Below are positions 48,001 through 51,000 of a stretch of 64,000 nucleotides of DNA, piece by piece (position 1 is the stretch's first letter; each line of letters begins with the position of its first letter). Made by a program: the position numbers. This DNA is from a virus (Duplodnaviria > Heunggongvirae > Uroviricota > Caudoviricetes), in IMG/VR virus record IMGVR_UViG_646311923_000012, one strand, 5' to 3'.

Positions 48001-51000
48001 TCTTCCTGTACATGCGAATATGTGATCAATACAACCAAAGGCGGGAAAGTCATAGCTAAAACGCTGAATAACTGGTGGAATCAGGCTAAACGCGCAGCCG
48101 AGCAAAAAGTTGGCGTTCCGTTCGGGTGCAATTTTCACGACATAAAAGCCAAGGGGATCTCAGATTACGAAGGCAGCAGTCGCGACAAACAAATTTTCAG
48201 CGGGCATAAAACAGAAAATCAGGTGTTGATTTACGATCGTAAAACAAAAATCACACCAACACTGGATTTGCCGCTCGTGGTTAGCAAGTAGACAATCCAG
48301 AAAAATTTCTGGCAAAAAGACTTGGTATACTAGCTATGAGCAACTTCCTAATACCTTGATTTTTCTTGGTGTTAAATTTGATTAACTTTTCAGCAATTTC
48401 ACGTATTGCACTGATTTTTATTTGTTTTTCTTCGGTCTTGAAAACCGGCGACCCGAAAGGGTTCCAGAGTTCGAATCTCTGCGCTTCCGCCAAATAATCA
48501 AGGGGTTACCAAATGGTAGCCCCTTTGCTTTTCTGGCTCTTGGTATAAACTTGGTATACCAATTGGTATATTTTTATTCGGATGATCTTGGTTCTTCCGG
48601 CCACTCAATATCAGGTGCAGTTGATGTATCAACACGGTTCAGCAACACCCGATACTTCTTCCAGGCTTCCAGCAACGAGTTTTCTTCCTCCGTTGCGATC
48701 TCCAGATCTACTGAAGAAGGCAACAGAAATAGATAATTAGTGCTTTATATTCAAAAGGTTAATAGCAAATTTGGCATGCTTTTTACTGTCTAGTAAACAG
48801 CATGCCTCTATCCATAAAATCAAACAGTTGCAATCTAATTTTGGAGAACGTTTTTTCTTCTCCCTTTTAGCAAATCGCTATAAAAAACAACAAATGGTAT
48901 AAAAATGAGCAATCCTAATCCATGCATGACGGACTGGAGAAAGTATTCACAAAAGTTAAAATCAACAGTCTGTTGATTTTGAGATATAACTCTCTTTTCT
49001 AATATTGACACCTTGGCTTTGCTGGTTGTTAAAATTAGCTTGTTGATTAGTAGTATGGATAGAACTTACTCTGTTATTTACTTCTAAAAATGGAATTTAT
49101 CAATGCTTCCTACATCGCAATTACGACCGACCGGGACATTCTGCTCCTATTCCGCTGAAACATCAGCAGGCATCAAAAGCGAAATCACACCAATTCAGAT
49201 AGAAGAAGCGCGGGCCAGTGGTCGTTTATATATCAAAGATTGTGATATTGAGTATCTGCCACAGTTACCAAACGAAATAACATCAGTTACAATCGAAAAC
49301 TGCAACAACCTGACAATCCTTACAGGATTGCCGGTTAATACACAAAACCTCTCCGTCATTAACTGTGAAAAATTACAAATCACAGACATACCATCGACAG
49401 TAAAAAATCTACATATTGAATTAACTGATTCACCATTTATACACATCATACCTGAAGGCATCGAATGCCTGACGGTTTGTCGCTGCCATATATCTGGAGT
49501 GCCAGAGAGCGTCCGCTACCTTGAGATAAAAGGTAGCGCCACAGACAGCATAAAAAATGTTCCAAACGGGTTATCATCTCTCAGCATCAATAGCTATAAC
49601 CCGGAGAATCAGGCCAGAATTGACAACCTGATATCACCGTCACTGCAGACGCTATCGCTGACTGGATGTAGCAATATTATACTGCCGGAGATACTTCCGG
49701 AGAGTGTGACATCGGTAACCATTCATGCGGAGCAGAAAACCACGTGGAACATCGGTGTTGAAGGGATGCCTGATGGGCTGGATCTTGATTTACAAAATGT
49801 ACTACTCTCTCCAGATGTAGTTAAAGCAAAAAACATCACCTTTCAGGGCAACGCTCTGGATGTGGCCTTACACTTTCGCGAGGGAGACATTGTCTATGGA
49901 CTATCTTCACCCAGAGAAAAACTTGTCAACAGCATTAAACTAGTTAACGACTTTTCCAAAAAAGATATTATAACTCAGAATACGTTAACAAACGCAGTAT
50001 GGGACCCCAGAACACCTCGCAAATATAAGCAAGATCCACTGATCAAAAGAGCATTAAATGAACACGAAAGAGGGATAAAATTTAAACAACACCTAAAGAG
50101 CCACAATAATTATAATGTCACCATGGCCGACCTTTCCGTATACAATCGCGACAAATTATGGGCAAAAACAAGCAAGGCCGGCCTGGAGTTTCAGACATTA
50201 ACACGCAACAAAACGGTTATTTTTTGTGCTGACGAGATTGTCAACTCACTCAAACTCATTGCTAATAAGTCAGATGGTTATGGTCAGAGTATTACTGCCA
50301 GCGAATTACGATGGATTTATCGCAACAAAGACAACGACCAGATAATGAAAAACATAAAGTTTTACTTGCGTGGGAAAGAGATACCAGCAGAAAAAATATT
50401 AGGCGCACCAGAGTGGAAAGACTACAAACCCAAATACTCTGGAGCCACATATAAGTATTCTTAATGATACCTACTCACAACGAAAGAACACAAAACAATA
50501 TATCGTAGTTCAAAGGACAAAGCACGATGCCATTTTCAATCAAAAACATATTTTCAAATTCAAAAGGAAGCTACCCAGAAATATCCGGACCTGTGCAGGA
50601 CAAGCCAGTATCGAAGAATTGTACACTAACCTCAACAACATGCTCTATGAATGACTACACAGTATTCAGCAGAAAATCCTGCACTTTTGACATGCGTCCA
50701 CCCGGAGCAGGAGACAGAACACCACAATTAAAACTCTCAGCATCTGAACTCATATGGCTATCTAAGACAATAGATACAGAGAGGAATAACATAAAAGAAT
50801 AGTAACCACTTACTAGGGAACACAAAAAGCCGCAGGCCCGAAACATCTGATTGCAAGCAACCACCTCCCGTGGAGGTGGTAAAATGGAGCCGGACTCCGG
50901 TTTTGTGAAGCTGTCGAGTTACTTCATCCCGCCAATATTTTCCCACGTCCCGTCACCACGCAGAATTTGCAGCGGTCTTACCACGCACTGTATCTGCTTT

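Follow-up and report, generated by a model that had tools for sequence, protein, structure and literature searches.

What kind of attachment (att) site lies where a phage integrase gene is followed by half a tRNA gene with phage-like repeats on both sides? The question is raised by positions 48292–48585 of a 64,000-nucleotide (nt) stretch of Caudoviricetes DNA (IMG/VR record IMGVR_UViG_646311923_000012), referred to as a whole as the window. The segment is very probably the middle att junction of two lambdoid prophages lying side by side at the tRNA-Ser gene serT (rough probability 0.85). The prophage to the left, which supplies the integrase gene (int), is called prophage A, and the one to the right, which carries the type III effector gene espK, prophage B. 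Tandem integration at serT is demonstrated in close relatives and, judging from the sequence, would apply to the source strain too.

Layout of the junction behind int

A 60-nt string at 48433–48492 (CGGTCTTG...CGCCA) matches serT of Escherichia coli K-12 exactly, from the anticodon stem (3′ strand) to the CCA end. It occurs once in the window, where no copy is expected. As the AATAA behind the CCA is also common to the window and K-12, the identity extends to 65 nt, and the alignment of attB, attP, attL, attR and middle-junction sequences defines a core of this length, shared by phage and chromosome (48433–48497, plus strand; serT nt 29–88 plus AATAA). Strand exchange would have to fall within these 65 nt. 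ARAGORN called no tRNA-Ser in the window, the serT 5′ half being absent at the junction, and Rfam did not call the tRNA fragment; both results are expected for half a gene and are not contrary evidence. The initial annotation had recognised a 60-nt copy of the 3′ part of a tRNA-Ser gene without its 5′ half, and this stands. Its position directly after int does not, since the fragment begins 141 nt past the int stop codon, and the extent of chromosomal identity was set 5 nt too short.

Phage sequence lies on either side of the core. The int-proximal arm (48292–48432, plus strand) contains CTTGGTATA at 48321–48329 and a degenerate copy, CTTGGTGTT, read by eye near 48366, and it is colinear with the attP of phage Evi and with the attR sites of the E. 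coli strains O26:H11 11368, O121 RM8352 and O26 EH2252. The int-distal arm (48498–48585, plus strand) consists of a variant of the serT terminator, a triplet of arm-type motifs with an inverted copy, and the C form of a single-nucleotide polymorphism (SNP), gcttttCtggctc. The triplet lies at 48539–48547, 48550–48558 and 48562–48570, in tandem and 11–12 bp apart, and the inverted copy at 48555–48563.

The motif common to both arms, TTGGTATA, is found at 48322, 48540, 48551 and 48563 on the plus strand and at 48555 on the minus strand. Five of its six copies in the window are packed into 250 bp at the junction, against an expectation of 1.24 across the 64 kb, and six copies were reached in none of 100 shuffles; the exact 9-mer CTTGGTATA is confined to the junction region within the window. 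Arm-type repeats had been proposed on both sides of the core, and they are indeed present once on the int side and as three tandem copies plus an inverted one on the far side. The motif is a candidate binding site for the integrase (Int).

Behind the CCA end a terminator hairpin (about 48500–48526; fold z = −3.0) is followed by a T-rich run. In the alignment the window continues after the core with TCAAGGGGTTACCAAATGGTAGCCCCTTTGCTTTTCTGG and K-12 with GATAAGGGGTTAGCTAAATGCTAACCCCTTTTTCTTTTG, and the stem carries paired base changes (ggggttaCC..GGtagcccc in the window vs ggggttaGC..GCtaacccc in K-12). The hairpin is identical to that of the free phage Evi, and the distal arm is the same as the arm that follows the intact serT at the attL of O26 11368. 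The sequence past the CCA is thus a phage-borne, diverged copy of the serT terminator and not chromosomal DNA. The hairpin had been noticed in the initial annotation as part of the tRNA copy; its presence holds, but it is not that of the host. From the divergence of this terminator (48498–48535 compared with K-12 downstream of serT), the att module may have been taken up from the serT locus of another host or have co-evolved with it.

An att set was built from each core copy found in the retrieved loci, and its members were aligned. Here attB is represented by serT of K-12 and attP by phage Evi. The attL of 11368 runs from hyaA through an intact serT into the phage distal arm, the remnant of a tail-fibre-assembly gene (tfa′), espK and stf::IS66, and the attR beside yccA in 11368, RM8352 and EH2252 is composed of int, the proximal arm, the core and the host terminator. 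Middle junctions have two phage arms round one core, and the window junction is of this type. The 60-nt tRNA part is identical in attL, attR, the middle junction and the Evi attP. Evi (LR597642.1, 40 kb) is colinear with window 47202–48585 at 92% identity, and the homology ends at 48585. Within this stretch lie int, the proximal arm and its copy of TTGGTATA, the core, the hairpin in the same variant and the motif triplet, and every copy of the motif is kept. Because of this colinearity, 48292–48585 can be said to have the full attP architecture of its phage family.

Two simpler assignments were tried against this set and rejected. In the attR of a single serT prophage the core is followed by GATAAGGGGTTAGC..., whereas the window continues with TCAAGGGGTTACC... 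and three copies of TTGGTATA; the flank past the CCA is phage-borne rather than chromosomal, which excludes a simple attR. An attL is excluded because the tRNA 5′ half is absent (no tRNA-Ser by ARAGORN), and the left flank is an int-proximal phage arm. Arms on both flanks had been taken to indicate an attP or a middle junction and not a simple attL or attR, and the comparison bears this out, with a phage arm to the right of the core and the int-proximal arm to the left.

Tandem prophages at serT in related genomes

The closest counterpart of the window is the serT region of EH2252, in which the junction is 100% identical to window 48240–48585. Starting from yccA, this region contains attR, int, the xis-like gene, exo and the remainder of a prophage (prophage 2) up to stf::ISCro1, espK, tfa′ and the junction. 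Beyond the junction follow int, the xis-like gene and the remainder of a second prophage (prophage 1) up to a tccP2-like gene, an EspV remnant (EspV′), an intact serT and hyaA. The intact tRNA-Ser gene and both outer junctions could thus be located in this relative, with the serT attL by hyaA and the attR by yccA, and the same 60-nt core is found at all three sites (record positions 1,259,082, 1,312,200 and 1,360,549). The two prophages are adjacent and complete, and each has its distal arm and cargo, tail, head and early genes and its own int. What EH2252 carries is a classical tandem lysogen, located at its native locus. Over all 64 kb the window is colinear with prophage 1, the junction and prophage 2 of EH2252, with a mosaic identity of 87–100%.

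Other relatives carry the same junction or one of its arms. In O121 RM8352, yccA and attR are followed by int and a complete espK prophage, the same junction, and then int and a second prophage. In O26 11368 the arm of the espK prophage is part of a plain attL, next to an intact serT and hyaA. In 22 complete genomes the identical junction is present together with the same flanks of at least 2 kb, and published genomes with an identical junction belong to O26 (EH2252 and the 97-3250 group) and O121 (RM8352 and others).

Strain 97-3250 differs in context. A BLAST comparison of the whole window with this genome gave only the junction region in common (window 47200–49200 at 100%). Its junction lies between the ends of the ydfJ and ompW prophages, far from serT, and a Mu-like prophage has inserted close by. 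Its two flanks belong to the prophage-2 type (exonuclease WP_000048499.1 to the left, tfa′/espK/stf to the right), and for this reason the 97-3250 junction equals the attP of one phage.

The surroundings of this copy (NZ_CP027599.1, 3,247,000–3,425,000) form a 177-kb block made up entirely of prophage DNA, which reaches from ydfJ′ to ompW, two loci that are ~320 kb apart in K-12. The block contains a Qin-like prophage, a truncated prophage ending in a serT-type int, the attP-type junction, espK, a 39-kb Mu-like prophage and ISCro1, and at its far end a lambdoid prophage terminating in an ompW-type int. It is evidence of large rearrangements between prophages.

The frequency of such junctions was surveyed with a query of the two arms only, the core having been removed; no more than roughly half of such a query is covered by a plain attL or attR. 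The att family was found in 747 of 5,426 complete E. coli genomes, O157:H7 included, with a median of two arm-bearing places per genome, meaning a single prophage with its attL and attR. Both arms round one core were seen in 70 of the 5,426, genomes of pathogenic E. coli. Counting the 747 genomes at ≥80% coverage as carriers of attP-type junctions was rejected as an overcount, since a plain attR with a similar host terminator can pass this limit.

A tandem arrangement could arise as follows. The attP of this phage group consists of the int-proximal arm, the 65-nt core copying the 3′ part of serT, and the int-distal arm with its own terminator and TTGGTATA triplet. Integration rebuilds the tRNA gene from the bacterial 5′ half and the 3′ half and terminator of the phage, giving attL, and the displaced bacterial 3′ half is left behind int as attR. 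A second phage of the same specificity could then recombine with the resident attL or attR, and the new internal junction would combine the proximal arm of one prophage with the distal arm of the other and look like an attP. In the window the proximal arm, int and the xis-like gene are those of prophage A and the distal arm is that of prophage B. Since close relatives carry prophage B at a plain attL, the comparison suggests that prophage A entered at the attL of prophage B. We infer that the exchange was catalysed by Int and that the source array is, or once was, bounded by a serT attL and attR.

Hybrid arms and competing explanations

The initial annotation had called the junction a hybrid, and the two arms do point to different partners. 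The distal arm exists in two SNP variants. The C form (gcttttCtggctc) is always followed by tfa′/espK, and the T form (gcttttTtggctc) by the EspV remnant, as in Evi. At the middle junction, the C arm is carried by the window, EH2252, the 97-3250 group and O121, and the T arm by the 11368 lineage, which has the C arm at attL. A reciprocal attL (hyaA, serT, core, T arm, EspV′) was predicted, assembled in silico and then searched for. In the 97-3250/EH2252 group, 12 genomes had it at 100% (at 3,852,149 in 97-3250), and 11 of these are among the 12 genomes that have the window junction at 100%. As the distal-arm variants co-segregate with the outer flank and the reciprocal attL was found, the two arms have separate histories. 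The flanks agree with this, window 26–48.3 kb being 99–100% identical to the prophage-1 type and 48.4–54 kb 100% identical to the prophage-2 type. Describing the junction as a hybrid of the proximal arm of prophage A and the distal arm of the espK-carrying prophage B is thus justified.

The order of the prophages at serT differs between O26 lineages. Between 11368 and the 97-3250/EH2252 group the distal arms of attL and the middle junction are swapped precisely and reciprocally, and the breakpoint falls within the interval holding the 65-nt core. The swap could reflect lysogenisation in another order, excision and later reintegration, or an Int-mediated exchange at the core. A bolder reading is that the attP-type junction is an active recombination hub and not a passive scar, with Int-mediated exchange among attL, the middle junction and attR. 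We regard this as tentative and rather doubtful. If it were true, a site-specific route would exist beside homologous recombination by which the prophages of enterohaemorrhagic E. coli are reordered and effector cargo is paired with new backbones, and such a hub might rearrange the chromosome too.

Several observations weigh against the assignment as a middle junction of tandem prophages. A hybrid junction made by site-specific recombination is structurally indistinguishable from the intact attP of a single phage. The outer junctions of the window's own array lie outside the 64 kb, and one core copy lies inside. No complete RefSeq E. coli genome matches the window from end to end, the best being EH2252 with 95% coverage and 96.5% identity. 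Inter-prophage recombination has broken up the array in several relatives, so that a junction can persist away from serT: besides the displaced copy in 97-3250, the attL of O26 11368 is 300 kb from the rest of its array, and the second prophage of O121 RM8352 adjoins torT. Finally, over its first 2 kb prophage A matches the tail-fibre/cargo end of a serU prophage in O45:H2-like strains at 100%. The far end of prophage A may therefore no longer be a serT attL, having been altered by later recombination.

The strongest competing explanation is that the segment is the intact attP of one phage, carried in unused by Campbell-type homologous recombination into a resident lambdoid prophage, or by duplication. 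The junction does have the same structure as the attP of free phage Evi, and in 97-3250 the prophage-2 type of both sides and the ydfJ–ompW location far from serT fit such a route. In the window and in EH2252, however, the two sides differ in type, with prophage 1 to the left and prophage 2 to the right. Prophage 1 moreover has T/EspV′ as its own distal arm at the EH2252 attL, whereas the junction has C/tfa′, and EH2252 contains two complete adjacent prophages, each with its int beside a core. This makes the intact-attP explanation improbable for the window.

The second competing explanation, an assembly artefact in which a contig from the attR side (int, arm, core) was falsely joined through the core repeat to one from the attL side (core, arm, espK), appears very improbable. 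It would account for the failure of any complete genome to reproduce the whole window, and in O45:H2-like relatives the left end of prophage A and prophage B do lie at separate loci. It is countered by the 22 complete genomes with the identical junction and flanks and by the 70 with the two-armed type, as well as by the consistent EH2252 array with which the window is colinear throughout.

A prophage-in-prophage arrangement, with one phage inserted at an attB copy that the other carries, as for the ompW and ydfJ prophages, is less probable still. This mechanism is documented in Shiga toxin-producing E. coli (STEC) beside clusters of effector genes (PMC8112680), and the junction adjoins the effector cargo espK. 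Neither prophage is split by the other, though, the EH2252 pair being complete and the window following its order, and the site is the phages' own att region and not a captured chromosomal attB. That a single prophage left a simple attR (or attL) here, with the right-hand TTGGTATA copies belonging to the chromosome downstream of serT, can be dismissed almost entirely: int followed by a tRNA 3′ fragment resembles an attR as far as 48497, but after the core K-12 and the true attR of 11368, O121 and EH2252 continue with GATAAGGGGTTAGCTAAATGC... towards yccA without TTGGTATA, whereas the window has a phage-type arm as in Evi and attL and lacks the tRNA 5′ half.

The flanking prophages and known systems

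The recombination genes of prophage A directly precede the junction. A small Xis-like protein (DUF4224; Pfam E = 9e-9) is encoded at 47052–47294 on the plus strand and overlaps the start of int (47272–48291, plus strand), which encodes an intact, lambda-Int-like tyrosine integrase of 339 amino acids (aa). From residue 1 onwards Int aligned in a PDB sequence search with full-length lambda Int (1z1b), and the alignment takes in the N-terminal arm-binding domain (E = 5.6e-20). Pfam Phage_integrase covers Int residues 168–323; the Pfam and NCBIfam profiles detected no arm-binding domain, which the PDB search does detect. Both proteins (Int, WP_001299351.1; Xis-like, WP_000273151.1) are identical to those of both EH2252 prophages. 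Together with the intact int and xis-like gene, the three direct-repeat att sites of such an array mean that prophage A, prophage B or both could in principle excise.

At the other end of prophage A, nleB2 (1–981, minus strand) lies at the left edge of the window, next to stf, lom and J. This region (window 1–9000) is 100% identical to O45:H2-like strains (2000-3039 and FWSEC0003), in which the serU prophage is arranged as yodB...int, serU, mtfA and has an integrase that differs from that of prophage A. Prophage A is a mosaic, with a tail region and an early region from prophages of two tRNA-Ser sites (serT and serU). Downstream of its Q region a cluster of phage tRNA genes was found at 29901–30150 on the minus strand, comprising Arg-TCT, Arg-TCG and a tRNA with a CAT anticodon (Met according to ARAGORN, Ile in RefSeq). 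Stx-like lambdoid phages typically have a tRNA cluster in this position. The relatives' annotation of prophage A showed no stx genes.

To the right of the junction, where the initial annotation had placed the effector and tail end of prophage B, the outer end is formed by tfa′ (48574–48714, minus strand), as annotated by RefSeq for the identical sequence in 97-3250, O121 and EH2252. Within this remnant (48620–48700, minus strand) lies a partial match to Rfam IS009 (RF02111), with 80 bits against a gathering score of 117 and covering model positions 119–199. This family of small RNA candidates was probably defined on homologous tfa sequence of a cryptic prophage. The tfa′ remnant is followed by espK (49103–50464, plus strand), a 453-aa open reading frame (ORF) whose identical DNA is annotated as EspK (WP_000938124.1), and then on the minus strand (50851–64000) by a tail-fibre gene split by the IS66-family element ISCro1 and by lom, J and tail genes that continue past the end of the window. 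The element (tnpA, tnpB and transposase) spans ~50850–53900, with the transposase ORF at 51226–52797 (minus strand), and the same insertion is found in O26 11368 and EH2252. With its tail-fibre gene interrupted, prophage B is probably tail-defective. Its tail region is 96–100% identical to prophage 2 of EH2252 and to the attL-side prophage of 11368, and window 48433–60000 has a 99.3% match to O45:H2-like strains in the form of a plain attL, the match beginning at the first base of the core.

Tandem prophages sharing an att site are the usual interpretation of prophage clusters in STEC as well as in enteropathogenic E. coli (EPEC) (PMC8112680), and serT is among the prophage sites listed for O121 (PMC8767318). 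The junction is therefore an ordinary and already known structure, the tandem lysogen, and reading it in this way leaves current understanding unchanged. In this cited STEC/EPEC prophage literature the serT middle junction is not dissected at the nucleotide level. The contribution here is descriptive: the att set at nucleotide resolution, the phage-borne terminator variant and the lineage-specific swap of partners. The full set of attB, attP, attL, attR and middle junction is thereby defined for a common family of serT-integrating lambdoid phages. The tandem reading also fixes where two effector-carrying prophages end, espK lying to one side of the seam, and explains a tRNA-Ser fragment that could otherwise be mistaken for a pseudogene. 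The possibility of excision bears on the mobility of effector genes and on the assembly and typing of STEC genomes.

An attP-like internal junction is textbook biology for the tandem lysogen of phage lambda (attL–prophage–P′OP–prophage–attR). The serT arrangement shares with it a lambda-type Int with an arm-binding domain, a core with motif-bearing arms, a single attB and the attP-like internal junction. It differs in its site, which is the 3′ part of the tRNA gene serT and not the gal–bio intergenic region, and in that two distinct mosaic phages with type III effector cargo are involved. The motif triplet is also on the int-distal arm, unlike the P′1–P′3 triplet of lambda, which lies on the int-proximal side.

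The tandem clusters of STEC and EPEC (O26, O121, O157 and O145; PMC8112680) involve the same organisms, the same kind of lambdoid effector-carrying prophages and the same interpretation, with the difference that the emphasis there is on attB copies inside prophages. The attP of phage Evi has the same order of exo, xis-like gene, int, proximal arm, serT core, terminator variant and TTGGTATA triplet. Past the distal arm, however, Evi continues with the EspV remnant and its own tail fibres as one circularly permuted genome and has the T variant, whereas the window has tfa′/espK and the C variant. As for the tRNA-targeting integrases of the P4, P22 and HP1 type, the phage brings a 3′ copy that restores the tRNA gene at attL, and the remaining junction or junctions keep a non-functional 3′ fragment; at serT, in contrast, the phage also brings a diverged terminator of its own, and tandem integration would account for a second junction with such a fragment.

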